Shown: positions 1 through 10,941, numbered from the stretch's first letter. The stretch is DNA of 10,941 nt from a virus (IMGVR_UViG_2563366831_000008); one strand, 5' to 3'. Numbers and translations: made by a program. The notes: generated from the sequence alone by a model not told the origin.

Positions 1-1164
1 TTACGCCTTCTTTATATCCTCCATAATTCCAGAGTGGGACATATTTGGGACATTATCACCAAAAATGTCGTCTATTTTCCTCGCATGCTCTGTCAAATGA
101 TTAGGCGCAAGGTGAGCATACCTACGAACCATTTCTATGGACTCCCATCCGCCCATTTCCTGAAGCACTGATAATGGGACGCCTGACTGAATCAGCCAGC
201 TTGCCCAGGTGTGTCTGAGGTCATGGAAACGGAAATCTTCAATTCCTGCACGACGACAAGCTGATAGCCATGATGTCTTGCTGTCGATGCGCATCTTCCT
301 GACCGCAGGCGTTGATGTTCCATCTGCTCGCTTAGCCGCCTTGGTATGTACAAACACCCATTTGTGATGCTTGCCTATTTGATCACGCAACACTTTACAG
401 GCGGTATCGTTCAGCGCCACACCAATGGCGCGGTTTGATTTGCTCTCTTCTGGATTCACCCAGGCAACTCGTCGCTGCATGTCGATTTGTTGCCATTCCA
501 GATTTATGATGTTCGACTTTCTCAGACCAGTTGCCAGCGCAAACTTGACGACAGATTTCAGTGGTTCGGGGCACTCATCAATAAGGCGTTTTGCTTCCTC
601 CTTTTCCAGCCATCTGACTCGCTTGTTTCTGACCGCTGGTATCTTGATGACAGGCGCTTTTTCCAGCCACTTCCAGTCGCGTTCTGCAGCACGGAGAATG
701 GCCTTTATCATGGCAAGATGCTTTGCCTTTGTCTGAGTTGATACTGGCTTTGGTTCATAAACAGGCGGTTCTTTACCTTTCCTGATGGCGGCCTGAACTT
801 TCTGTTTCCATATTTCTTTCGTCTTTCTGTTATGCATTCTGCTTACAGCAGAGTAAATCTTTGCCTCCGAGATATCTTTAAGCCTTATACCCTCAAAATG
901 TTCAAGCCAGAACTCAATCCGGCTTTTATCTGAATCGAGAGATTTTTTATCAGCTTTTTCCTCAAGCCATCTTAGGCAGGCCTCTTCAAAAGTGACATCA
1001 GGTAAATCCCCTAGCTTTTCTACTCGCCAGAGTTCTGCTTTTCGCTTGTCGTGCAACTCCTGAGCTTGCCGCTTGTCCTTTGTGCCAAGAGATTCCTTAA
1101 TTCGTTTCCCGCCCGGGAGCGAATACGAGGCATACCATATTTCATTTCTGCGGAAGAGTGACAT
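1..1164 (-). CDS. int: Tyrosine recombinase / phage integrase (P22/DLP12-like, not lambda Int)
   Basis: 387-aa ORF; N-terminus [24 protein letters not shown] matches the P22/DLP12 integrase family as I recall it; C-terminal HDLRHT...RYAH catalytic region; SD GAGGAAA 4 nt before ATG at 1164. Stop codon is at the window edge, so attL lies outside the window. Confidence 0.93.
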
Positions 1165-1391
1165 TTTCTTTCCTCTGTTATGCCATCACCCGCGCTCACC
1201 TGGACAGTATGCAGCGGAGACTGAAGCGCCGCAATGCAGGCTTGCCGTGTTGTGAGGTAAGGAGATTTTGGCTTGGTTGGATCTTTACGTGTTGCCTGTA
1301 GGCGGCCTGTTCGTATCCAGTTGGTGGCGGTTGGTCTGGATATCTTAAGAAACTGACAGGCCTCATCGAGTGTGAGGCTGTATGATTCCAT
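1020..1391 (-). CDS. xis: Excisionase-like protein (Xis)
   Basis: Position immediately upstream of int; start MESYSL... at 1391 with SD GAGG about 6 nt upstream (the ORF track's start at 1421 lacks an RBS). The ORF overlaps the int start by about 145 nt, so the true 3' end is uncertain. Confidence 0.6.
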
Positions 1392-1641
1392 GGTTACCTC
1401 TGCTTTTTGAACGCATGTCACGTAACTTCTTAATGTGTTCTGCCGTTTCGATCTCTTCTGCTATCCGATCTGCATCAGCTTTATTCACAGGTTCAAAGTC
1501 ATGATTAAAGCGGAACATGCTGGCGATACATGTTCTGCCTTTTCGGATGTAGTGAACTTTGTTGTGGGTAGAACGCAGGATTTTGCAGGGAGTACCGTGG
1601 TGGTCGACGTACCAGGTGTTAGGAAAAATGATTCTGAACAT
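1363..1641 (-). CDS. Hypothetical phage protein (92 aa)
   Basis: Intact ORF with strong SD GAGGTG 5 nt before the ATG at 1641; overlaps the xis start by 29 nt, consistent with translational coupling in an early leftward operon. No recognisable domain. Confidence 0.6.
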   Translation of the reverse strand: MFRIIFPNTWYVDHHGTPCKILRSTHNKVHYIRKGRTCIASMFRFNHDFEPVNKADADRIAEEIETAEHIKKLRDMRSKSRGNHGIIQPHTR

Positions 1642-1688
1642 TTTTACACCTCAGTTGGACGATGTTGAAATTTGCTGCTTTGAGGCCA

Positions 1689-1907
1689 TCACAGTCCCCA
1701 TTGTTTGTTCTTAAGTTCGATCTCCTCCTGGCAACTTGCACAAGTCCGACAACCCTGAACAGCCAGGCGTCTTCGCTCATCTATCGGATCGCCACACTCA
1801 CAACAATGAGTGGCAGATACAGTCTGGTAGTTCAGACGACGCATTTTTATTGCTGTATTGCGCTGTAATTCTTCGATTTCTGATGCTGAATCAATTATGT
1901 CTGCCAT
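1689..1907 (-). CDS. DksA/TraR-family C4-type zinc-finger protein
   Basis: 72-aa ORF with CxxC-N17-CxxC (CCECGDPIDERRRLAVQGCRTCASC), typical of phage TraR-like proteins; weak SD. Confidence 0.8.
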   Translation of the reverse strand: MADIIDSASEIEELQRNTAIKMRRLNYQTVSATHCCECGDPIDERRRLAVQGCRTCASCQEEIELKNKQWGL

Positions 1908-1962
1908 CTTTCATTAATCCCTGAATTGTTGGTTAATACGCTTGAGGGTGAATGCGAATAAT

Positions 1963-1984
1963 AAAAAAGGAGCCTGTAGCTCCC
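1963..1984 (-). terminator. Rho-independent terminator candidate (minus strand)
   Basis: On the minus strand: hairpin GGAGC-tacag-GCTCC followed by TTTTTT; lies between the 2006..2287 ORF and the TraR-like gene. Confidence 0.5.
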
Positions 1985-2005
1985 TGATGATTTTGCTTTT
2001 CATGT

Positions 2006-2287
2006 TCATCGCTCCTTAAAGACGCCGTTTAACATGCCGATCGCCAGACTTAAATGAGTCGGTGTGAATCCCATCAGCGTTACCGTTTCGCGGTGCTTCT
2101 TCAGTACGCTACGGCAAATGTCATCGACGTTTTTATCCGGAAACTGCTGTCTGGCTTTTTTGATTTCAGAGTTAGCCTGACGGGCAATGCTGCGAAGGGC
2201 GTTTTCTTGCTGAGGTGTCATTGAACAAGTCCCATGTCGGCAAGCATAAGCACACAGAATATGAAGCCCGCTGCCAGAAAAATGCAT
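2006..2287 (-). CDS. Hypothetical phage protein (93 aa from ATG 2287; alternative start at 2221 gives 71 aa, MTPQQENALRS...)
   Basis: Open frame in the early leftward operon; neither candidate start has a strong SD, so the start is uncertain. Confidence 0.5.
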   Translation of the reverse strand: MHFSGSGLHILCAYACRHGTCSMTPQQENALRSIARQANSEIKKARQQFPDKNVDDICRSVLKKHRETVTLMGFTPTHLSLAIGMLNGVFKER

Positions 2288-2297
2288 TCAGTGGTTG

Positions 2298-2489
2298 TCA
2301 TACCTGGTCTCTCTCATCTGCTTCTGCTTTCGCCACCATCATTTCCAGCTTTTGTGAAAGGGATGCGGCTAACGTATGAAATTCTTCGTCTGTTTCTACT
2401 GGTATTGGCACAAACCTGACTCCAATTTGAGCGAGGCTATGTGCCATCTCGATACACGTTCTTAACTCAACAGGAGATGCTTTGTGCAT
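2298..2489 (-). CDS. Small phage protein, lambda orf61-like (63 aa)
   Basis: Same size and position as the lambda ORF upstream of orf60a, and overlaps the next ORF by 28 nt as in lambda; G-rich SD 4 nt before the ATG. Confidence 0.6.
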   Translation of the reverse strand: MHKASPVELRTCIEMAHSLAQIGVRFVPIPVETDEEFHTLAASLSQKLEMMVAKAEADERDQV

Positions 2490-2644
2490 ACAGCCCCCCG
2501 TTTATTATTTATCTCCTCAGCCAGCCGCTGTGCTTTCAGGGGATTTCTGATAACAGAAAGGCCGGGAAATACCCAGCCTCGCTTTGTAACGGAGTAGACG
2601 AAAGTGATCGCACCTACCCGGATATTATCGTGAGGATGCTTCAT
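2462..2644 (-). CDS. Small phage protein, lambda orf60a-like (60 aa)
   Basis: Protein [19 protein letters not shown]... matches my recollection of lambda orf60a; its ATG overlaps the exo stop as ATGA (2641-2644), the lambda arrangement. The ORF track start at 2650 (MAM...) is two codons further upstream. Confidence 0.7.
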
Positions 2645-3321
2645 CGCCATTGCTCCCCAAATACAAAACCAATTTCAGCCAGTGCCTCGTCCATTTTTTC
2701 GATGAACTCCGGCACCATCTCGTCAAAACTCGCCATGTACTTTTCATCCCGCTCAACCACGACATAATGCAGGCCTTCACGCTTCATACGCGGGTCATAG
2801 TTGGCAAAGTACCAGGCATCTTTTCGCGTCACCCACATGCTGTACTGCACCTGGGCCATGTAAGCCGATTTTATTGCCTCGAAACCACCGAGCCGGAATT
2901 TCATGAAATCCCGGGAGGTAAACGGGCATTTCAGTTCCAGGCCGTTGCCGTCACTGCATAAACCATCGGGAGAGCAGGCGGTGCGCATACTTTCGTCGCG
3001 ATAGATGATCGGGGATTCAGTAATATTCACGCCGGAAGTGAATTCAAACAGGGTTCTGGCGTCGTTCTCGTACTGTTTTCCCCAGGCCAGCGCCTTAGCA
3101 TTAACTTCCGGAGCCACACCGGTGCAAACCTCAGCCAGCAGGGTGTGGAAGTAGGACATTTTCATGTCAGGCCACTTCTTTCCTGAGCGGGGCTTTGCTA
3201 TCACGTTGTGAACTTCTGAAGCGGTGATGACGCCGAGCCGTAATTTGTGCCATGCATCATCCCCCTGTTCGACAGCTCTCACGTCGATCCCGGTACGCTG
3301 CAGGATAATGTCCGGTATCAT
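2641..3321 (-). CDS. exo: Lambda exonuclease (Red-alpha), 5'-3' dsDNA exonuclease
   Basis: 226-aa protein essentially identical over its length to lambda Exo as I recall it ([40 protein letters not shown]...GFVFGEQWR); overlaps the bet stop by 4 nt. Confidence 0.97.
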
Positions 3322-4103
3322 GCTGCCACCTTCTGCTCAGTGGCTTTCTGTTTCAGGAATCCAAGAGCTTTCACTGCTTCGGCCTGTGTCAGTTCTGACG
3401 ATGCGCGAATGTCGCGGCGAAATATCTGGGAACAGAGCGGCAATAAGTCGTCATCCCATGTTTTATCCAGGGCGATCAGCAGAGTGTTAATCTCCTGCAT
3501 GGTTTCATCGTTAACCGGAGTGATGTCGCGTTCCGGCTGACGTTCTGCAGTGTATGCGGTATTTTCGACAATGCGCTCGGCTTCATCCTTGTCATAGATA
3601 CCAGCAAATCCGAAGGCGAGACGGGCACACTGAATCATAGCTTTATGCCGTAACATCCGTTTGGGATGCGACTGCCACGGCCCCGTGATTTCTCTGCCTT
3701 CGCGAGTTTTGAATGGTTCGCGGCGGCATTCATCCATCCACTCGGTAACGCAGATCGGATGATTACGGTCCTTGCGGTAAATCCGGCATGTACATGATTC
3801 ATTGTCCTGCTCAAAGTCCATGCCATCAAATTGCTGGTTTTCATTGATGATACGGGACCAGCCATCAACGCCCACCACCGGAACGATGCCGTTCTGCTTG
3901 TCAGGGAAGGCGTAAATTTCTTTCGTCCACGGATTAAGGCCGTACTGGTTGGCGACGATCAACAATGCGATGAACTGCGCATCGCTGGCATCACCTTTAA
4001 ATGCCGTCTGGCGAAGAGTGGTGATCAGTTCCTGTGGGTCGACAGAATCCATGCCGACACGTTCAGCCAGCTTCCCAGCCAGCGTTGCGAGTGCTGTACT
4101 CAT
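3318..4103 (-). CDS. bet: Lambda Bet (Red-beta) single-strand annealing protein
   Basis: 261-aa protein matching lambda Bet ([37 protein letters not shown]...), same length and context. Confidence 0.97.
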
Positions 4104-4108
4104 CCGTT

Positions 4109-4405
4109 TTATACCTCTGAATCAATATCAACCTGGTGGTGAGCAATGGTTTCAACCATGTACCGGATGTGTTCTGCCATGCGCTCCTGAAACTCAACAT
4201 CGTCATCAAACGCACGGGTAATGGCTTTTTTACTGGCCCCGTGGCGTTGTAAATGATCGATGCAGAGTGATTCAAACAGGTGCTGGGGCAGGCCTTTTTC
4301 CATGTCGTCTGCCAGTTCTGCCTCTTTCTCTTCACGGGCGATCTGCTGGTAGTGACGCGCCCAGCTCTGAGCCTCAAGACGATCCTGAATGTAATAAGCG
4401 TTCAT
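4109..4405 (-). CDS. gam: Gam, RecBCD inhibitor (98-aa GamS form)
   Basis: [60 protein letters not shown]... matches lambda Gam from the internal start codon onward. Confidence 0.93.
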
Positions 4406-4478
4406 GGCTGAACTCCTGAAATAGCTGTGAAAATATCGCCCGCGAAATGCCGGGCTGATTAGGAAAACAGGAAAGGGG

Positions 4479-4622
4479 TTAGTGAATGCTTTTGCTTGAT
4501 CTCAGTTTCAGTATTAATATCCATTTTTTATAAGCGTCGACGGCTTCACGAAACATCTTTTCATCGCCAATAAAAGTGGCGATAGTGAATTTAGTCTGGA
4601 TAGCCATAAGTGTTTGATCCAT
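4479..4622 (-). CDS. kil: Kil (host cell-division/FtsZ inhibitor), 47 aa
   Basis: [47 protein letters not shown] matches lambda Kil; it is the C-terminal 47 codons of the 89-aa track ORF; overlaps cIII by 32 nt as in lambda. Confidence 0.9.
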
Positions 4623-4755
4623 TCTTTGGGACTCCTGGCTGATTAAGCATGTCGATAAGGCGTTTCCATCCGTCACGTAATTTACGGGTGATTCGTTCAA
4701 GTAAAGATTCGGAAGGGCAGCCAGCAACAGGCCACCCTGCAATGGCATATTGCAT
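4591..4755 (-). CDS. cIII: CIII (FtsH/HflB inhibitor that stabilises CII), 54 aa
   Basis: [54 protein letters not shown] is near-identical to lambda CIII; SD AAGGAG upstream of the ATG at 4755. Confidence 0.93.
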   Translation of the reverse strand: MQYAIAGWPVAGCPSESLLERITRKLRDGWKRLIDMLNQPGVPKNGSNTYGYPD

Positions 4756-4816
4756 GGTGTGCTCCTTATTTATACATAACGAAAAACGCCTCGAGTGAAG
4801 CGTTATTGGTATGCGG

Positions 4817-4835
4817 TAAAACCGCACTCAGGCGG
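4817..4835 (-). terminator. Hairpin / possible attenuator at the ea10 stop codon
   Basis: Minus strand CCGCCTGAGTGCGG followed by TTTTA; the ea10 stop lies in the loop. Lambda has regulated RNA structure upstream of cIII; the function here is uncertain. Confidence 0.3.
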
Positions 4836-5196
4836 CCTTGATAGTCATATCATCTGAATCAAATATTCCTGATGTATCGATATCGGTAATTCTTATTCCT
4901 TCACTACCATCCATTGGAGGCCATCCTTCCTGACCATTTCCATCATCCCAGTCGAACTCACAAACAACACCATATGCATTTAAGTCTTTCGAAATTGCTA
5001 TAAGCAGAGCATGTTGCGCCAGCATGATTAATACAGCATTTAATAAAGAGCCGTGTTTATTGAGTCGGTATTCAGAGTCTGACCAGAAATTATTAATCTG
5101 GTGAAGTTTTTCCTCTGTCATTACGTCATGGTCGATTTCAATTTCTATTGATGCTTTCCAGTCGTAATCAATGATGTATTTTTTGATGTTTGACAT
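4828..5196 (-). CDS. ea10: Ea10-like early protein (122 aa)
   Basis: Size (122 aa) and position (immediately pL-proximal to cIII) equal lambda ea10; assignment is by context and size, as I do not recall the lambda Ea10 sequence. Confidence 0.7.
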   Translation of the reverse strand: MSNIKKYIIDYDWKASIEIEIDHDVMTEEKLHQINNFWSDSEYRLNKHGSLLNAVLIMLAQHALLIAISKDLNAYGVVCEFDWDDGNGQEGWPPMDGSEGIRITDIDTSGIFDSDDMTIKAA

Positions 5197-5361
5197 CTAT
5201 TCATATCCTCATAGATAAAAAATCGCCTTCACACTGGAGGGCAAAGAAGATTTCCAATAATCAGAACAAGTCGGCTCCTGTTTAGTTACGAGCGACATTG
5301 CTCCGTGTATTCACTCGTTGGAATGAATACACAGTGCAGTGTTTATTCTGTTGTTTATGCC

Positions 5362-5387
5362 AAAAATAAAGGCCGACTATGCGGCCT
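5362..5387 (-). terminator. Rho-independent terminator candidate (minus strand)
   Basis: Minus-strand hairpin AGGCCG-catagt-CGGCCT followed by TTTATTTTT, 5 nt downstream of the stop of the 5392..5841 ORF. Confidence 0.55.
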
Positions 5388-5391
5388 GAAA

Positions 5392-5841
5392 TTACTTAAC
5401 CAATGATGCTGCATATTCGATAAGGTAAAGCTTTGGGGCCAGCCAAATTTTTAACCAAGTCATATTGGTTACTACACCAATAATAAAAATCCCCCACAGA
5501 GTCAAAACTCCAACCAATGGCATGATAAGAAGATTAATATCACCTTTGCTATCCCAAACCATTGTCGGCCTGTATTTGGGATTTCCTTTCTCCCATGAAT
5601 ATCCTTCATCACCGATTTTACCTGTCTCAACTCTTTGGCACTGCTTCTTCATAAACCAGAAAACCAGTGGGATTGTTAGAATGGCCATTAATGTTTTAAT
5701 CAGACTGTCAACCATATTCCATAGCAGCAACTGATGAACAACATCAGGAATCTGTGCCTGGCTAAATGAAACAGCCGCGTCTATTCCATTACTGGCTTTT
5801 TGCAGTAGTTCTACGAGAATCTTGTTTGCTTGTTCTTCCAT
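5392..5841 (-). CDS. Predicted inner-membrane protein (149 aa), possible superinfection-exclusion-type accessory protein
   Basis: Strong SD AAGGTGA before the ATG at 5841; at least two long hydrophobic stretches (LMAILTIPLVFWFM; LLIMPLVGVLTLWGIFIIGVV); flanked by terminators; sits where lambda carries ral/sieB. Confidence 0.7.
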   Translation of the reverse strand: MEEQANKILVELLQKASNGIDAAVSFSQAQIPDVVHQLLLWNMVDSLIKTLMAILTIPLVFWFMKKQCQRVETGKIGDEGYSWEKGNPKYRPTMVWDSKGDINLLIMPLVGVLTLWGIFIIGVVTNMTWLKIWLAPKLYLIEYAASLVK

Positions 5842-5882
5842 ATATCACCTTGATTGTAATAAGCATGAAATTATTTACGGAC

Positions 5883-5911
5883 AAAAATAAAGGCCACCAT
5901 CAGGCAGCCTT
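5883..5911 (-). terminator. Rho-independent terminator candidate (minus strand)
   Basis: Minus-strand hairpin GGCTGCC-tgat-GGTGGCC (7 bp including two G-U pairs) followed by TTTATTTTT. Its 5' flank (CAAAAATAAAGGCC) repeats that of the 5362..5387 terminator. Confidence 0.5.
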
Positions 5912-5980
5912 GTAGTTCTGTTTACCAAGTTCTCTGGCAATCATTGTCGTCGTTCGTATTGTCTACACCATTGATTCTTA

Positions 5981-6067
5981 TCAATAGTCGTAGTCATACG
6001 GATAGTCCTGGTATTGTTCCATCACATCCTGAGGATGATCTTCGAACTCTTCAAATTCTTCTTCCAT
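5981..6067 (-). CDS. Candidate micro-ORF encoding a 28-aa highly acidic, Tyr-rich peptide (MEEEFEEFEDHPQDVMEQYQDYPYDYDY)
   Basis: ATG at 6067 preceded by SD GAGGTGA; 12 of 28 residues are D/E and none K/R; lies 58 nt downstream of N, just before a terminator. Purely sequence-based; could be non-coding. Confidence 0.35.
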   Translation of the reverse strand: MEEEFEEFEDHPQDVMEQYQDYPYDYDY

Positions 6068-6125
6068 ATCTCACCTCAAATAAGTGGTTTGCTGCCTAAT
6101 TTCATTTTCTGGCGACCAACACAAG

Positions 6126-6398
6126 TCATCTTGCTGTCAGTTGTTTGGATTTCCGGTAGCCTGCCGCGTAAAGAGCTACGTTTGGAAGACAAGTTGAGCC
6201 TTCATATTTTCTGGTCAGCGTTGTCAGTGTTATTACTTCTGCTCTCATTGCTGGTTTGCGCTTGCATTGCAAGACCACTCGTGAAGGGGTTGGCCTGTGT
6301 AGCTTGTCGGAGCTGATCGCCTTCTGACTTTGCAGATTTGCGCGACGAGCTCTACGGCGAGAAGCTGCGGTGCCTTTAAATTCTGTTTTTCTGGACAT
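6126..6398 (-). CDS. N: N-type transcription antitermination protein (90 aa), of the 933W/H-19B/phi21 type rather than lambda
   Basis: N-terminal arginine-rich motif MSRKTEFKGTAASRRRARRANLQ and C-terminal ...CLPNVALYAAGYRKSKQLTAR, which resembles Stx-phage N proteins as I recall them; SD GGGAGG before the ATG at 6398 (track ORF start at 6482 has no RBS); first gene after pL/nutL. Confidence 0.85.
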   Translation of the reverse strand: MSRKTEFKGTAASRRRARRANLQSQKAISSDKLHRPTPSRVVLQCKRKPAMRAEVITLTTLTRKYEGSTCLPNVALYAAGYRKSKQLTAR

Positions 6399-6496
6399 AG
6401 ATTCCTCCCGAATAAACTTTGGCGATGCAATCTCGAAGCTCCTCCTGAGACGGTTGCTTCGGCATTGCATCCCACAGCTCATGTGGTTGGGTGATC

Positions 6497-6542
6497 TGGC
6501 TTTTCAGCCACGTAGTCGAGAGTTCGACGTTGTTTAAAGAGC
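6497..6542 (-). promoter_or_regulatory. nutL site: boxA (6530..6542) and boxB hairpin (6497..6510)
   Basis: Minus strand reads GCTCTTTAAACAA (boxA-like, cf. CGCTCTTTAACAA) and, 19 nt downstream, TGGCT-GAAA-AGCCA (5-bp stem with GAAA loop), in the N leader between pL and N. Confidence 0.6.
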
Positions 6543-6588
6543 CTGCCAGTCTGTTCCGTTTGGCTTCCAGCGTCCTGCTGACGGTTAA

Positions 6589-6617
6589 ATAGTACGATAT
6601 GTACTTTATTGTGTCAA
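6589..6617 (-). promoter_or_regulatory. pL promoter candidate
   Basis: Minus strand TTGACA (plus 6612-6617), 17-nt spacer, TACTAT (plus 6589-6594); correctly placed upstream of nutL and N. Confidence 0.5.
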
Positions 6618-6673
6618 TACGATTTGCTCTAAAATGGGGTGATTTTTTATAACACTTTGTATTTAATAGTGTT
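6591..6673. promoter_or_regulatory. OL operator region (candidate repressor-binding palindromes)
   Basis: AGTAC-gatat-GTACT (6591-6605) overlaps the pL -10; AACACT-N11-AGTGTT at 6651-6673. A related motif AGTACatattGTAT occurs in OR (8323-8336). Confidence 0.4.
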
Positions 6674-6808
6674 GTTTTTTAGCGTGGGTGTATTGCCTCG
6701 GCGATGTAAGGAGAGATCAGAATTGCGTGGTTTAGTGAGTTGTATCTATTTATTTTTCAATAAATACATTTGGTTATGTGTCTTTAGGTGGGGGCGTGAG
6801 GCAAAGAA

Positions 6809-6830
6809 AACCCGGCGCTGAGGCCGGGTT
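6809..6830. terminator. Bidirectional rho-independent terminator (tIMM-like)
   Basis: AAAA-CCCGGC-gctgag-GCCGGG-TTTT: 6-bp GC stem with a U-tract on either strand, directly after the stop of the HicA-like gene. Confidence 0.6.
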
Positions 6831-7115
6831 TTAGCTAATGATTTGGAATCCTATATCCTCAAGCGTTGCGTCACCTCTGCATAACGCATGAAAGTGACGA
6901 GCTTTCAGTCCAGCTTGCTTAGCCATGGATTTTATTAAATCTCTGGAGAATGGGGCGTGATGCTTATCAACTGTAACCACCCATTTTCCTTTACTGTTCT
7001 TGAGAACCCACTGTTCGTGAGAGGTTCCTGTTTTAGGTTTCATTTCAAACCCCATTTTCTTAAGTCCCCTGATTACCTCGTCGTATTTCAAAGGAGTAAG
7101 CTTTTTCAAGAACAT
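6831..7115 (-). CDS. HicA-family (YcfA-like) putative mRNA-interferase toxin, 94 aa, with a C-terminal extension of roughly 25 aa
   Basis: Core KYDEVIRGLKKMGFEMKPKTGTSHEQWVLKNSKGKWVVTVDKHHAPFSRDLIKSMAKQAGLK fits the HicA pattern (GxxH motif, basic dsRBD-like fold signature); start is 11 nt after the upstream HicB-like stop. Family call is from motif memory, not a search. Confidence 0.7.
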   Translation of the reverse strand: MFLKKLTPLKYDEVIRGLKKMGFEMKPKTGTSHEQWVLKNSKGKWVVTVDKHHAPFSRDLIKSMAKQAGLKARHFHALCRGDATLEDIGFQIIS

Positions 7116-7126
7116 GTAATGTAACC

Positions 7127-7423
7127 CTAAGCATGAGCATCACAAGGCTCAGCAAAGAGTTTTGCTTCACCTCGTTTTCTGACAAAAACCTGAAATGCAA
7201 TTACCCAATACTTAAGCCACATAGATAAAGGTGCTTTCCGACTTAGTAGTTGTTTTGCATATTCCGGCTCTGATAGCGCTTCAGTGAAAAAATCTTTAAT
7301 CTGCTCATCCAGTTTGTTTACAGCTTCTTTCATAGTATCTGCTTGCGCTGCCAATGACAGGTCTAAACATGCAGCTACGTAAACGCCGTTCTGCTGGTAG
7401 GCCATGCAACGTAAGGTTTTCAT
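7127..7423 (-). CDS. HicB-like (RNase-H-fold antitoxin domain) protein, 98 aa, without a recognisable DNA-binding domain
   Basis: N-terminal GVYVAACLDLSLAAQADTMKEAVNKLDEQI resembles the HicB N-domain signature (beta-strand, then xGxT/EEA helix); strong SD GAGGAGA 6 nt before the ATG at 7423; located upstream of the HicA-like gene. Confidence 0.6.
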   Translation of the reverse strand: MKTLRCMAYQQNGVYVAACLDLSLAAQADTMKEAVNKLDEQIKDFFTEALSEPEYAKQLLSRKAPLSMWLKYWVIAFQVFVRKRGEAKLFAEPCDAHA

Positions 7424-7595
7424 TTTATCTCTCCTCAGAAGCTCTCATGTAGGAGCTTAAGTGAAGTTTACCCTATAGGTAATTTTAGACAACCCCAAAA
7501 TACCTATATTTTGTAAATGTCAATACATTAGCAGCGAATACCTTCCAACTTATCCACAAGCCAGAGATTGATAGCTTAAAAAACAAACAGAGAAA

Positions 7596-8255
7596 TTACC
7601 CAAACGTCTCTTCTGGCCACTGGCTGGCGATAACTTTCCCCACAACGGAACAACTCTCATTGCATGGGATCATTGGATATTGCGGGTTTAGTGGCTGTAG
7701 AAACACCTGACCGCTATCCCTGATCAGTTTCTTGAAGGTAAACTCATCACCACCAAGTCTGGCTATGCAGAAATCACCTGGCTCAACAGCCTGCTCAGGG
7801 TCAACCAGAATTAACATCCCGTCAGGAAAACTAGGTTTGGAACCTGTTGGGGCGGTCATCGAGTTACCTTCAACCTCAAGCCAGAATGCAGAGTCACTGG
7901 CTTTTTTGGTTGTGCTTACCAATCTCTCCGCATCGCCTTTGGTAAAGGTTCTGAGTTCTGGAGAGAACATCCCAGCCTGAACATGAGAAAAAACAGGGTA
8001 CTCATATTGTTTTTTAACTGGGGCCGATGAGTATTCGCCAACAGGTGAAAATGTCCCGTCGTGGTTGAATGATATGTTATCAATACCAAGGTATTTAAAC
8101 ACCACACCAATATCACTAAGAGATGGATGACGAGATCCGCGCAACCAGTGTCCAATTCCACCCTGCGTCATACCTAGCTCTTCGGCTAACTTCTCTTGAG
8201 TTATGCCGAGCTCTTTCATTCTGGATCTAGCCAGTTCATACCATTTCATTTTCAT
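7596..8255 (-). CDS. cI: CI prophage repressor (HTH N-domain plus S24 LexA-like autocleavage C-domain); chimeric
   Basis: From ...[28 protein letters not shown]... to the C-terminus the protein matches lambda CI; the N-terminal ~100 aa (HTH ...[20 protein letters not shown]...) is unrelated to lambda CI. Start is uncertain: the track ORF begins at a TTG (8297), the first ATG is 8291; 8255 or 8249 (MKMKW/MKW) fit the AAGGA SD best. Confidence 0.88.
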
Positions 8256-8366
8256 GTCCTTATTATTACGCTCTGTATTGCAACCATCCATGCACAATGT
8301 GTATTTTTTCTTGCATTAAAAAAGTACATATTGTATTTTTTTCTTCATGGTTACTATGGAGGGCAT
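8256..8366. promoter_or_regulatory. OR region: divergent pRM/pR promoters and operators
   Basis: pR candidate: TTGCAT (8311-8316), 17-nt spacer, TATTTT (8334-8339), about 25 nt upstream of the cro ATG. Palindromic elements GTATTTTTT-N9-AAAAAAGTAC (8301-8327) and AGTACatattGTAT (8323-8336). pRM not pinned down. Confidence 0.55.
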
Positions 8367-8582
8367 ATGAGCAACCTACGAAAATATCGAGAGTCACTGA
8401 ATATCTCTCAAACAACACTTGCTAAGGCAGTTGGATGCACACAGGGAGCTATCGGACATTGGGAATCTGGTCGTCGCTTCCCAGACCTTAAAACATGCCG
8501 TGCTCTTGTTGCGTGTCTAAACAAGTTAGGCGCAAAAGTAAGTCTTGATGACGTGTTCCCGCCGGAGCACAAAGCCGCTTAA
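8367..8582 (+). CDS. cro: Cro-type repressor (71 aa, HTH)
   Basis: MSNLRKYRESLNISQTTLAKAVGCTQGAIGHWESGRRFPDL... with an HTH; SD GGAGG immediately upstream of the ATG at 8367; divergent from cI. The 128-aa track ORF from 8196 is an upstream extension without an RBS. Confidence 0.85.
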   Translation: MSNLRKYRESLNISQTTLAKAVGCTQGAIGHWESGRRFPDLKTCRALVACLNKLGAKVSLDDVFPPEHKAA

Positions 8583-8590
8583 TAAGCGGA

Positions 8591-8636
8591 GCCGCTCTTT
8601 GTAACAACGGACATTCGTCCTACGTCGCTGAAAAGC
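8591..8636 (+). promoter_or_regulatory. nutR site: boxA (8591..8605) and boxB hairpin (8623..8636)
   Basis: CGCTCTTTGTAACAA (boxA-like), then TCGCT-GAAA-AGCGA hairpin 17 nt downstream. A possible further hairpin ATGCGT-ttcc-ACGCAT at 8667-8682 may belong to a tR1-like region. Confidence 0.6.
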
Positions 8637-8723
8637 GAGCCCCAAGATATCTGACCAACTAAGGCCATATGCGTTTCCACGCATACCTTTCAACTAACTA
8701 TTCACTATTGGAAATCTTAAGAA

Positions 8724-9020
8724 ATGGAACAAACAAATTACAGCAAACTATCACAGCGCGACGTTGATCGCGCAGAAACAGATTTACTTATCAACCTGTC
8801 AACGCTTACTCAGCGCGGTCTGGCAAAGATGATTGGCTGTCATGAATCGAAGATAAGCAGAACAGACTGGAGGTTTATAGCTTCGGTCTTGTGTGCTTTT
8901 GGCATGGCATCAGACCTCAGTCCGATTAGCAGAGCTTTTAAGTATGCGCTTGATGAAATCACCAATAAAAAACGCCCGGCGGCAACCGAGCGTTCTGAAC
9001 AAATCCAGATGGAGTTCTGA
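8724..9020 (+). CDS. cII: CII transcriptional activator (98 aa); chimeric
   Basis: C-terminal ...NKKRPAATERSEQIQMEF matches lambda CII; the N-terminal two thirds (MEQTNYSKLSQRDVDRAETDLLINL...) differ from lambda. Confidence 0.88.
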   Translation: MEQTNYSKLSQRDVDRAETDLLINLSTLTQRGLAKMIGCHESKISRTDWRFIASVLCAFGMASDLSPISRAFKYALDEITNKKRPAATERSEQIQMEF

Positions 9021-9044
9021 GGTCATTACTGGATCTATCAACAG
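8966..9044 (-). ncRNA. oop: oop-like antisense RNA (terminator hairpin inside the cII 3' end)
   Basis: Minus-strand hairpin CGCUCGG-uugccg-CCGGGCG followed by UUUUUUAUU (plus 8966-8993) matches the lambda oop terminator; the flanking cII 3' end and O 5' end appear lambda-like. The 5' end is inferred from the lambda length of about 77 nt. Confidence 0.5.
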
Positions 9045-9052
9045 GAGTCATT

Positions 9053-9952
9053 ATGACAAACACAGCAAAAATACTCAACTTCGGCAGAGGTAACTTTGCC
9101 GGACAGGAGCGTAATGTGGCAGATCTCGATGATGGTTACGCCAGACTATCAAATATGCTGCTTGAGGCTTATTCGGGCGCAGATCTGACCAAGCGACAGT
9201 TTAAAGTGCTGCTTGCCATTCTGCGTAAAACCTATGGGTGGAATAAACCAATGGACAGAATCACCGATTCTCAACTTAGCGAGATTACAAAGTTACCCGT
9301 CAAACGGTGCAATGAAGCCAAGTTAGAACTCGTCAGAATGAATATTATCAAGCAGCAAGGCGGCATGTTTGGACCAAATAAAAACATCTCAGAATGGTGT
9401 ATCCCTCAAAACGAGGGAAAATCCCCTAAAACGAGGGATAAAACATCCCTCAAATTGGGGGATTGCTATCCCTCAAAACAGGGGGACACAAAAGACACTA
9501 TTACAAAAGAAAAAAGAAAAGATTATTCGTCAGAGAATTCTGGCGAATCCTCTGACCAGCCAGAAAACGACCTTTCTGTGGTGAAACCGGATGCTGCAAT
9601 TCAGAGCGGCAGCAAGTGGGGGACAGCAGAAGACCTGACCGCCGCAGAGTGGATGTTTGACATGGTGAAGACTATCGCACCATCAGCCAGAAAACCGAAT
9701 TTTGCTGGGTGGGCTAACGATATCCGCCTGATGCGTGAACGTGACGGACGTAACCATCGCGACATGTGTGTACTGTTCCGCTGGGCATGCCAGGACAACT
9801 TCTGGTCCGGTAACGTGCTTAGCCCGGCCAAACTCCGCGACAAGTGGACCCAGCTCGAAATCAACCGTAACAAGCAACAGGCAGTCGTGACAGCCAGCAA
9901 ACCAAAACTCGACCTGACAAACACAGACTGGATTTACGGGGTGGATCTATGA
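9053..9952 (+). CDS. O: Lambda O replication initiator protein
   Basis: 299-aa protein matching lambda O (MTNTAKILNFGRGNFAGQERNVADLDDGYARLSNMLLEAYSG...); SD AGGAG upstream; contains the ori iterons. Confidence 0.97.
   Translation: MTNTAKILNFGRGNFAGQERNVADLDDGYARLSNMLLEAYSGADLTKRQFKVLLAILRKTYGWNKPMDRITDSQLSEITKLPVKRCNEAKLELVRMNIIKQQGGMFGPNKNISEWCIPQNEGKSPKTRDKTSLKLGDCYPSKQGDTKDTITKEKRKDYSSENSGESSDQPENDLSVVKPDAAIQSGSKWGTAEDLTAAEWMFDMVKTIAPSARKPNFAGWANDIRLMRERDGRNHRDMCVLFRWACQDNFWSGNVLSPAKLRDKWTQLEINRNKQQAVVTASKPKLDLTNTDWIYGVDL
9401..9530. repeat. Lambda-type replication origin: four ~19-20 bp iterons plus AT-rich region
   Basis: Direct repeats ATCCCTCAAAACGAGGGAAA (9401), ATCCCCTAAAACGAGGGATA (9421), CATCCCTCAAATTGGGGGATT (9444), ATCCCTCAAAACAGGGGGAC (9468), followed by the A-rich tract ACAAAAGAAAAAAGAAAAGATTATT. 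Confidence 0.9.
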
Positions 9953-10614
9953 AAAACATCGCCGCACAGATGGTTGACTTTGACCGTGAGCAGATGCGTC
10001 GGATCGCCAACAACATGCCGGAACAGTACGACGAAAAGCCGCAGGTACAGCAGGTAGCGCAGATCATCAACGGTGTGTTCAGCCAGTTACTGGCAACTTT
10101 CCCGGCGAGTCTGGCTAACCGTGACCAGAACGAACTGAACGAAATCCGTCGCCAGTGGGTTCTGGCTTTTCGGGAAAACGGGATCACCACGATGGAACAG
10201 GTTAACGCAGGAATGCGCGTAGCCCGTCGGCAGAATCGACCATTTCTGCCATCACCCGGGCAGTTTGTTGCATGGTGCCGGGAAGAAGCATCCGTTATCG
10301 CCGGACTGCCAAACGTCAGCGAGCTGGTTGATATGGTTTACGAGTATTGCCGGAAGCGAGGCCTGTATCCGGATGCGGAGTCTTATCCGTGGAAATCAAA
10401 CGCGCACTACTGGCTGGTTACCAACCTGTATCAGAACATGCGGGCCAATGCGCTTACTGATGCGGAATTACGGCGCAAGGCTGCCGATGAACTGACCTGT
10501 ATGACAGCGCGAATTAACCGTGGTGAGACGATACCTGAACCAGTAAAACAACTTCCTGTTATGGGCGGTAGACCTCTAAATCGTGCACAGGCTCTGGCGA
10601 AGATCGCAGAATGA
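9949..10614 (+). CDS. P: Lambda P (DnaB helicase loader), C-terminally truncated by an IS insertion (221 aa versus 233 in lambda)
   Basis: Protein matches lambda P up to ...RAQALAKIAE; the ATG overlaps the O stop as ATGA; the reading frame ends at a TGA supplied by the first bases of the IS terminal repeat (10612-10614). Confidence 0.9.
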   Translation: MKNIAAQMVDFDREQMRRIANNMPEQYDEKPQVQQVAQIINGVFSQLLATFPASLANRDQNELNEIRRQWVLAFRENGITTMEQVNAGMRVARRQNRPFLPSPGQFVAWCREEASVIAGLPNVSELVDMVYEYCRKRGLYPDAESYPWKSNAHYWLVTNLYQNMRANALTDAELRRKAADELTCMTARINRGETIPEPVKQLPVMGGRPLNRAQALAKIAE

Positions 10615-10941
10615 ACCGCCCCGGGTTTCCTGGAGAGTGTTTTATCTGTGAACTCAGGCTGCCAGATCATCGTTTCCGATGGAAGCATAATAAGCTTTTT
10701 CTGCTTCTGCCGGAGGAGTATGGCCCAGCCTTTCCAGCAATCGTCGATTGTTATACCAGTCCACCCACGTGAGTGTGGCCAGTTCCACTTCTGCACGGTT
10801 TTTCCAGCTCTTACGGTGTATTACCTCCGCTTTGTAAAGACCATTGATGCTCTCCGCCATCGCGTTGTCATACGAGTCGCCTGTACTTCCTGTTGATGCC
10901 AGTAATCCGGCTTCCTTAAGCCGCTGTGTGTAGGCCAGCGA
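10612..10941 (-). mobile_element. IS3-family insertion sequence (IS629-like), right end; element continues beyond the window
   Basis: Terminal sequence TGAACCGCCCCGGGTTTCCTGGAGAG begins exactly where similarity to lambda P stops, and resembles the IS629 terminal inverted repeat as I recall it; a transposase 3' end follows on the minus strand. Confidence 0.8.
10654..10941 (-). CDS. IS3-family transposase (OrfB, DDE integrase domain), C-terminal fragment; 5' part lies outside the window
   Basis: ...MAESINGLYKAEVIHRKSWKNRAEVELATLTWVDWYNNRRLLERLGHTPPAEAEKAYYAS is the conserved C-terminal region of IS3-family OrfB; the frame is open to the window edge; stop is 42 nt inside the IS end. Confidence 0.8.
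   Translation of the reverse strand, partial: SLAYTQRLKEAGLLASTGSTGDSYDNAMAESINGLYKAEVIHRKSWKNRAEVELATLTWVDWYNNRRLLERLGHTPPAEAEKAYYASIGNDDLAA

Follow-up and report, generated by a model that had tools for sequence, protein, structure and literature searches.

Positions 7596–9020 of IMGVR_UViG_2563366831_000008, a virus-derived stretch of 10,941 nucleotides that we analyzed in full (the window), raise a question about the origin of phage immunity genes: relative to phage lambda, both cI and cII appear to join lambda C-terminal coding sequence to N-terminal coding sequence of another kind. A first-pass annotation read this as recombination within the two genes that had produced a chimeric immunity region. 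Are these junctions genuine, and are they peculiar to this element? Our analysis indicates that the region very probably represents a complete lambdoid lysis/lysogeny switch of a known immunity type, that of VT2-Sakai (Sp5), Stx2 phage II, Nil2, 2851, 1717 and the non-Stx phage 2B8.

ORF mapping and family searches show that the window covers a lambdoid prophage's early region, including its lysis/lysogeny control genes (Table 1). The prophage occupies the argU/intD site beside tRNA-Arg, and five or more complete E. coli genomes contain argU/intD prophages that are 100% identical to bases 1–10611. Because P is cut by an insertion sequence in the source genome, the prophage may be non-inducible to productive growth. 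An Rfam search of the whole window returned the cIII RNA thermometer as its sole match, with no oop or nut family matched. Direct reading of the sequence suggests a possible nutR-like region (Table 1). The GCTGAAAAGC motif occurs again at 6499–6508 on the minus strand, upstream of N, as a candidate nutL.

Table 1. Features of the window, with coordinates counted from its first nucleotide; promoters, operators and RNA signals are predictions
Feature	Coordinates	Strand	Sequence or signal	Remarks
int	1–1164	−		followed by exo, bet, gam
N-type antiterminator gene	6126–6482	−		Pfam N_peptide, E=4e-32
pL	6617–6589	−	TTGACA-17-TACTAT	promoter scan 10/12; overlaps OL1 and OL2
OL1	6590–6606		core AGTACGATATGTACT, 6591–6605	identical to AP005154 putative operator
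OL2	6615–6631			2 positions differ from AP005154 site
OL3	6648–6664			2 positions differ from AP005154 site
Lambda block	6711–6830			corresponds to stretch just downstream of rexB
hicA/hicB-like pair	6831–7423	−		
cI ORF	7596–8297	−		233 aa, raw ORF
cI 3′ part	7596–8006	−		lambda-type hinge and S24 autocleavage/oligomerization domain
Lambda block	7600–8006			93.6% identity; cI 3′ part, lambda 37231–37637
cI 5′ part	8007–8255	−		non-lambda HTH_3 DNA-binding domain
pRM (weak)		−	~TGGATG-17-AATAAT	abuts OR2, overlaps OR3
OR3	8264–8280		TATTACGCTCTGTATTG	overlaps predicted pRM −10; 1 mismatch to AP005154 putative operator
OR2	8290–8306		ATGCACAATGTGTATTT	abuts predicted pRM −35; identical to AP005154 putative operator
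pR	8311–8339		TTGCAT-17-TATTTT	contains OR1
OR1	8322–8338		AAGTACATATTGTATTT	inside pR; inverted repeat; identical to AP005154 putative operator
cro	8367–8582	+		HTH_3 (P22/434-like) type
nutR-like region	8593–8638	+	boxA-like CGCTCTTTGTAACAA; boxB-like hairpin TCGCTGAAAAGCGA	candidate, read from sequence
pRE	8714–8746	−	CII box TTGC-tgtaat-TTGT, 8733–8746; −10 TAAGAT, 8714–8719	predicted
cII	8724–9020	+		98 aa
cII body	8724–8958	+		codons 1–79; HK022/21/933W-type allele
cII tail	8959–9020	+	TNKKRPAATERSEQIQMEF	codons 80–98; lambda-type FtsH degradation tag; overlapped by oop
Lambda block	8959–10611			98.3% identity over 1,653 nt; cII end, O and P
oop antisense RNA gene	8966–9043 (approximate ends)	−	tO hairpin 8969–8996; pO 9050–9078	
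O	9053–9952	+		
P	9949–10614			interrupted by an IS3-family element

By blastn, lambda (J02459) shares just three homologous blocks with this area (Table 1), and a codon-by-codon comparison of cI with its lambda counterpart revealed an abrupt switch at 8006/8007 (plus-strand coordinates). The annotation had CI matching lambda from about residue 100 onward behind a different helix-turn-helix domain, and both statements hold. Codons through Q97 of the 233-aa ORF bear no relation to lambda and the N-terminal 83 residues are 23% identical, whereas from Y98 (YEYPVF; equivalent to lambda Tyr102) to the end 135 of 136 residues are identical to lambda CI. The sole amino acid change in this hinge and C-terminal domain (CTD) is a tryptophan-to-leucine substitution (W129L), the single non-synonymous difference alongside 26 synonymous ones in the cI 3′ part. 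This ratio argues that the CTD exchange with lambda is old and was followed by very strong purifying selection.

The domain structure of CI is that of a LexA/CI-type S24 phage repressor, with Pfam HTH_3 at residues 25–72 of the 233-aa ORF (E=2e-10) and Peptidase_S24 at 101–223 (E=1.3e-28), and its C-terminal part matches the lambda cI structures 3bdn, 8gmu and 2ho0 in the PDB. The cI breakpoint is located in the linker that connects the DNA-binding domain to the C-terminal one. Since hinge and CTD are lambda-identical apart from the one substitution, the VQAG/MF, GNSM and FKKL motifs are all present in CI; the Ala-Gly cleavage site and the Ser/Lys dyad are intact, and A94, G95, S132 and K175 are invariant in the alignment. 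From the 99% identity to the lambda CTD, together with its known structures and biochemistry, we infer that CI undergoes RecA-stimulated autocleavage.

An abrupt change in similarity need not mean recombination: the two proteins could have descended vertically from a common ancestor with lambda, their DNA-binding parts evolving much faster under diversifying selection for new immunity. Fast diversification of immunity determinants is to be expected, and in homologues from other enterobacteria (P0002–P0007) the N-terminal domain (NTD; 77–83% identity) and CTD (80–85%) do co-diverge. Yet in cI and in cII alike, 100% identity gives way to background inside a single codon, and the nearest other CI NTDs are those of Salmonella P22-like C2/CI repressors (52–55%), far closer than lambda's. 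Among 120 homologues, moreover, CTDs at least 80% identical to that of CI carry at least four unrelated NTD classes (CI's own; one of 50–57% identity from Salmonella and Enterobacter; the lambda class; and one of 27–31%), NTDs of CI's family are also joined to CTDs of just 58–63% identity, and in one E. coli protein (P0107) the breakpoint is shifted to a later position inside the CTD. The occurrence of one CTD class on at least four NTD classes indicates that domain shuffling is general in cI. The CTDs found across NTD classes are all ~80–89% identical to that of CI, in a star-like pattern from which no direction, and so no donor lineage, can be inferred.

The second junction lies within cII, where similarity to lambda switches just as abruptly, at 8958/8959. 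The last 19 residues of CII (TNKKRPAATERSEQIQMEF) are those of lambda, with every nucleotide alike, whereas the first 79 are 29% identical. The annotation was therefore right that CII keeps a lambda C-terminus behind a different N-terminal part, although that part amounts to 79 of 98 residues, or four fifths of the protein rather than the two thirds it gave. CII is nonetheless a member of the Pfam family Phage_CII (PF05269; residues 1–92 of 98, E=8.5e-34) and matches the lambda CII structure 1xwr (E=9e-10), so the body remains recognizable as a homologue of lambda CII, as vertical descent would have it. Its closer relatives are elsewhere: the body is 87–95% identical to those of phi21, HK022 and 933W, 99% to that of 2B8 and 95% to those of Stx2 II-type phages. 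The body is the widespread allele of HK022, phage 21 and 933W and not a new one; these are phages with quite different CI and Cro proteins.

What the cII junction borders is evident from the DNA. The 102 bp of 8959–9060 match lambda at every position (100% identity); this block includes synonymous positions and the non-coding cII–O spacer and that carries oop, its promoter and the FtsH degradation tag. On the minus strand, a terminator-like hairpin (8996–8969) and a promoter-like site overlapping the O start (9078–9050) are present, and the records of phages 21 and 434 place oop on the homologous sequence. A leftward pO at the O start, a transcript of ~77 nt and a terminator in the 3′ end of cII are the features of oop, and the gene is predicted here on these grounds; in lambda, oop overlaps cII by 52 nt (PMC5869508). 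Position 8958/8959 sits a few bases beyond the T-run of the oop terminator, which identifies it as the left edge of an oop–O–P module.

Could the tail instead have been preserved purely by selection on the protein as an FtsH tag, unconnected to oop or to the replication module? The FtsH signal of lambda CII comprises its C-terminal 16 residues (PMC5869508), so such selection is conceivable, and a tag of this kind is present in our CII, where, by analogy with the lambda literature, it would direct degradation. Protein selection does not account for perfect DNA identity over 102 nt that extends through synonymous positions and the pO-bearing cII–O spacer, however, and the same CII body occurs elsewhere with quite different tails. 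Instead, tail type tracks the replication module: the lambda tail accompanies lambda-type O in the window, 2B8 and 434, and a KKKSPAATEDFKQIDMQF tail accompanies HK022-type O in Stx2 II, VT2-Sakai and HK022, while 933W has a third tail type and phage 21 a hybrid one. We therefore regard maintenance by protein selection as scarcely credible. That the tail co-varies with downstream O and not with the CII body also runs against vertical descent, which, given this and the cI data, is highly improbable. The cII junction thus does not reflect an event particular to CII but marks the left-hand limit of the lambda-type replication module (8959–10611).

Intragenic borders of this kind have precedent. 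In phage 21 (AJ237660), whose CII body is 87% identical to ours and whose Cro is unrelated (24%), the limit of lambda homology is likewise intragenic, in the part of cII that oop overlaps. It is annotated 36 nt before the cII stop codon, compared with 62 nt in the window, and this position accounts for the hybrid phage 21 tail, KKKRPVCKTERSEQIQMEF. The 'border lambda immunity' entry in that record, placed inside cII and oop, shows that an intragenic border has long been documented.

Between the two junctions, the immunity determinants are of a different type from lambda's. Cro, which the annotation had also judged non-lambda, matched only HTH_3 (E=4e-12), HTH_31 and HTH_19 in Pfam, without a match to the lambda Cro family; a global alignment forced on it and lambda Cro paired 60 residues at 30% identity. 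Cro and the CI NTD have a common recognition-helix motif, TQGxIGHW, within 62 aa of 35% identity (E=9e-13), as expected of proteins that read the same operators. Six predicted 17-bp operators of the type ARTAC-N5-GTAYT flank pL and pR (Table 1). Two sites in the window fit this pattern, compared with 0.03 expected by chance: OL1 and OR1, the latter through its core AGTACATATTGTATT (8323–8337). The annotation's AGTAC-N5-GTACT palindromes are indeed non-lambda, but the sole perfect copy is OL1, which lies outside 7596–9020.

The remaining operators, OL2, OL3, OR2 and OR3, are individually weak, with two to three mismatches to the palindrome, and a scan for AGTAC-N5-GTACT with three mismatches allowed returned 32 matches in the window, too permissive a result to define them. 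In GenBank, the Stx2 phage II entry (AP005154) already lists putative 17-bp operators, three per side. A three-way comparison of the window with 2B8 and Stx2 II shows conserved operators between variable spacers, a modest phylogenetic footprint. Measured between centres, the operators lie 32 and 26 bp apart in OR and 25 and 33 bp apart in OL, as against ~24 and ~23 bp in lambda. Given this difference, lambda-style pairwise cooperativity should not be assumed here, notwithstanding the identical CTD; no alternative OR2 at a lambda-like distance (~25 bp) from OR1 is visible in the sequence.

Taken with the absence of lambda homology across 8007–8958, the window lacks the determinants that define lambda immunity (its CI DNA-binding domain, Cro and 17-bp operators), and the annotation's proposal that the helix-turn-helix domain, Cro and operators differ from lambda's in specificity is probably correct. 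Gel shifts with the six VT2-Sakai operators are consistent with this: lambda CI bound them at 3.7–6.4 uM, compared with 0.2–0.35 uM for its own OR1/OL1 (PMC10742460).

The operator and promoter layout also bears on where cI begins. The raw ORF starts at 8297 and databases place the start at 8291 (231 aa); the true start is probably the ATG at 8255 (or that at 8249), which, for 8255, would yield a protein of 219 aa. Annotated products of 231–233 aa are likely too long because their 5′ ends overlap OR3/OR2 and the pRM annotated in AP005154, and public cI annotations thus probably set the start codon too far upstream. With a predicted pRM start at or beside the ATG at 8255, the cI mRNA would be near-leaderless, as in lambda.

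A further predicted element is the promoter at which CII would act. The annotation had proposed a minus-strand TTGC-N6-TTGT repeat as the activator site of pRE, with coordinates one base off (8732–8746): the sequence, TTGCtgtaatTTGT, spans 8733–8746 and corresponds to nucleotides 10–23 of cII. Matches of the TTGC-N6-TTGY type are not significant by count (3 versus 1.45 expected), and the case for the box rests accordingly on positional conservation. The phage 434 record places the pRE −35 and a 'CII binding site consensus ttgynnnnnnttgy' at the same register of cII, and this register is common to eight lambdoid phages, including lambda, 434, 21, HK022, 933W, Stx2 II and 2B8. The six intervening bases and the coding sequence vary among these phages, and in the window a TAAGAT −10 element lies at the lambda-equivalent distance from the box. 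These data support homology, by position, of the box to the pRE activator site.

How does the region compare with named phages? Lambda resembles it in the CI hinge and S24 domain, the last 19 residues of CII, oop, pO, O (1 aa difference), P, gene order and the register of the pRE CII box. It differs in the CI HTH domain (23%), the CII body (29%), a Cro of a different fold family and unrelated operators, and it carries rexAB where the window has hicAB, as well as an N of a different type. In the Stx2 II group (AP005154; VT2-Sakai/Sp5, Nil2, 2851, 1717), CI and Cro are 100% identical to ours, three operators (OL1, OR2 and OR1) are identical and the remaining three carry 1–2 base differences, and the N and OL region is 94.5% identical; unlike the window, however, the group has an HK022-type CII tail and oop (79% DNA identity over 8959–9060), an HK022/P22-type O–P module and another gene where the window has hicAB, between cI and OL. 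Phage 2B8 (LR595859/NC_049952) combines both sets of features: DNA identity is 99.5% over 7595–9100 and 98.6% over 7595–10611, CI and Cro are 100% identical, CII matches at 97 of 98 residues, and the cII tail, oop, O and P are lambda-type, as in the window. It differs in having 858-bp ORF cargo in the cI–OL slot, where the window has hicAB, and a P without an insertion sequence. With the same repressor, Cro and operators, the window appears to belong to the VT2-Sakai/Stx2 II/2B8 immunity group.

These comparisons speak directly to whether the element acquired a new hybrid immunity region through a recent pair of intragenic recombinations of its own. The abruptness of the junctions relative to lambda is compatible with such an origin, and at 98.3% identity to lambda over 1,653 nt the right-hand block, comprising the replication module and cII tail, could have been gained comparatively recently. 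The distinctive chimera implied by the first-pass annotation, however, is not what we found: CI is identical over its full length to the proteins of Stx2 II and 2B8, as is Cro, CII is near-identical to that of 2B8, and the combination of a lambda-type cII tail with lambda-type O and P already exists in 2B8. Full-length identity with a known phage was the outcome that the annotation itself had named as refuting its reading. The 26 synonymous differences against one non-synonymous difference in the cI CTD likewise mark an old divergence under purifying selection. The junctions that the annotation placed inside cI and cII are therefore real relative to lambda but are the property of a whole lineage.

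The distribution of the region reinforces this point. In the phage database, 334 records match 7400–9100, with 2B8 at 99.5% identity and Stx2 II, VT2-Sakai, Nil2, 2851, 1717 and Stx1 phages at ~96%. The non-lambda core (8007–8958), counted as present at 80% coverage or more, occurs in 631 of 5,426 complete E. coli genomes, about one in nine, and the CI cluster in a large protein collection holds 1,686 member sequences. The CI allele corresponds to the 'Clade I' CI of Stx phages, which is 61% identical overall to lambda CI (Fagerlund et al. 2022, PMC8951638), and cI and cII of Sp5 are active when cloned (PMC3355084). In view of this prevalence, a recent origin specific to this element is very unlikely. 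Recombination among lambdoid phages generated both junctions relative to lambda, which are borders between modules; both were inherited by a large phage lineage and are not specific to the prophage studied here.

Together, these features suggest how the switch would operate. Through its P22-C2-like HTH domain, CI would bind three operators each at OR and OL and so repress pR and pL, while activating and autoregulating pRM through OR2 and OR3. It would dimerize and oligomerize via the near-lambda hinge and S24 domain, and RecA-stimulated self-cleavage at an Ala-Gly site identical to that of lambda would inactivate it. Cro, with a recognition helix nearly identical to that of CI, would compete for the same operators. 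CII is predicted to activate pRE at the TTGC-N6-TTGT box within its own 5′ coding sequence, to be degraded by FtsH by way of the lambda-type C-terminal tag, and to be opposed by antisense oop RNA. Our comparisons support the view that the lambda-type parts that were kept are the carriers of RecA-stimulated autocleavage and oligomerization (the CI hinge and S24 domain) and of FtsH targeting (the CII tail).

CI and lambda CI differ in DNA specificity and share essentially the same dimerization, oligomerization and cleavage domain, so mixed assemblies of the two are possible. In cells carrying both immunities, mixed dimers or octamers might couple or weaken repression of the two heteroimmune prophages and synchronize their induction, and the unusual operator spacings of 32/26 bp (OR) and 25/33 bp (OL) may point to use of one and the same CTD in a cooperative geometry other than lambda's; we consider this scenario rather unlikely.

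The region is real, textbook lambdoid mosaicism of a kind already known, and the annotation outlined it correctly, with its elements at or close to the positions given. Since the same mosaic is found in Shiga toxin phages and 2B8 and in about a ninth of complete E. coli genomes, it is an ordinary one. It offers a clear example of such mosaicism, one breakpoint lying in the linker between protein domains and the other where a small-RNA gene ends, and the apparent junction internal to cII makes better sense as the border of the oop/replication module. In annotation terms, the region can be assigned to the VT2-Sakai/Stx2 II/2B8 immunity group, and this assignment predicts that the prophage would confer superinfection immunity against many Stx phages and would show lambda-like SOS inducibility.

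Comparison of the cI coding sequences indicates that purifying selection on this gene, both across the lambda-type hinge and S24 half of CI (CTD; 7600–8006) and over its whole length, is very strong, because the synonymous and non-synonymous differences number 26 and 1 between the window and lambda CTDs, and 10 and 0 between the window gene and that of Stx2 II. Every one of the latter lies in the CTD half, and the non-lambda HTH_3 half (NTD), OR and cro coding sequences of the window and Stx2 II are identical. In the record of the related phage VT2-Sakai (AP000363), cI carries an in-frame stop at codon 31 (MT*GG), a position occupied by Gln in all relatives, and the sole cI annotation is a 510-nt 3′ CDS.

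Public annotations (PGAP, AP005154) start cI at 8291, yielding a 231-aa protein; this position falls within OR2/OR3, upstream of the annotated pRM. A better fit is initiation at ATG 8255 (or 8249), in which case the cI mRNA would probably be near-leaderless, like that of lambda. The predicted operators are asymmetrically spaced between the two sides, with centre-to-centre distances of 32 bp (OR1–OR2) and 26 bp (OR2–OR3) at 8264–8338, versus 25 bp (OL1–OL2) and 33 bp (OL2–OL3) at 6590–6664. These differ from the lambda spacings of about 24 and 23 bp, although the cooperativity domain is lambda-identical.

Other features in the window
Feature	Position	Strand	Details
lambda cIII RNA thermometer, upstream of cIII	4710–4768	-	Rfam RF01804, 88.5 bits, E=5e-21
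Candidate nutL boxB hairpin	6498–6509	-	core GCUGAAAAGC
hicA toxin gene and DUF1902/HicB-like gene	6831–7595		Pfam HicA_toxin E=8e-11 for hicA
Candidate nutR boxB hairpin	8625–8638	+	core GCUGAAAAGC
IS3-family element, inserted in P	10611–10941		transposase C-terminus 10654–10860 (-)

The hicA/hicB-like cassette beside cI has sharp edges, at a terminator-like GC hairpin common to lambda and the window (6830) and at the cI stop codon (7596). In lambda, rexA–rexB fill this exact slot, whereas 2B8 and Stx2 II/VT2-Sakai each hold a different gene there. Upstream of hicB, a 12-nt inverted repeat (7474–7485/7497–7508) looks like an operator of hicB itself. The candidate nutL and nutR boxB hairpins share their core, and boxA-like sequences adjoin them at about 6531–6543 (-) and 8593–8607.

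The IS3-family element, whose end (TGAACCGCCCCGGG...) resembles IS629, removes the final 12 codons of P and provides its stop codon. P is intact in identical prophages of other genomes; with P interrupted by the IS, the window's prophage copy may be replication-defective.
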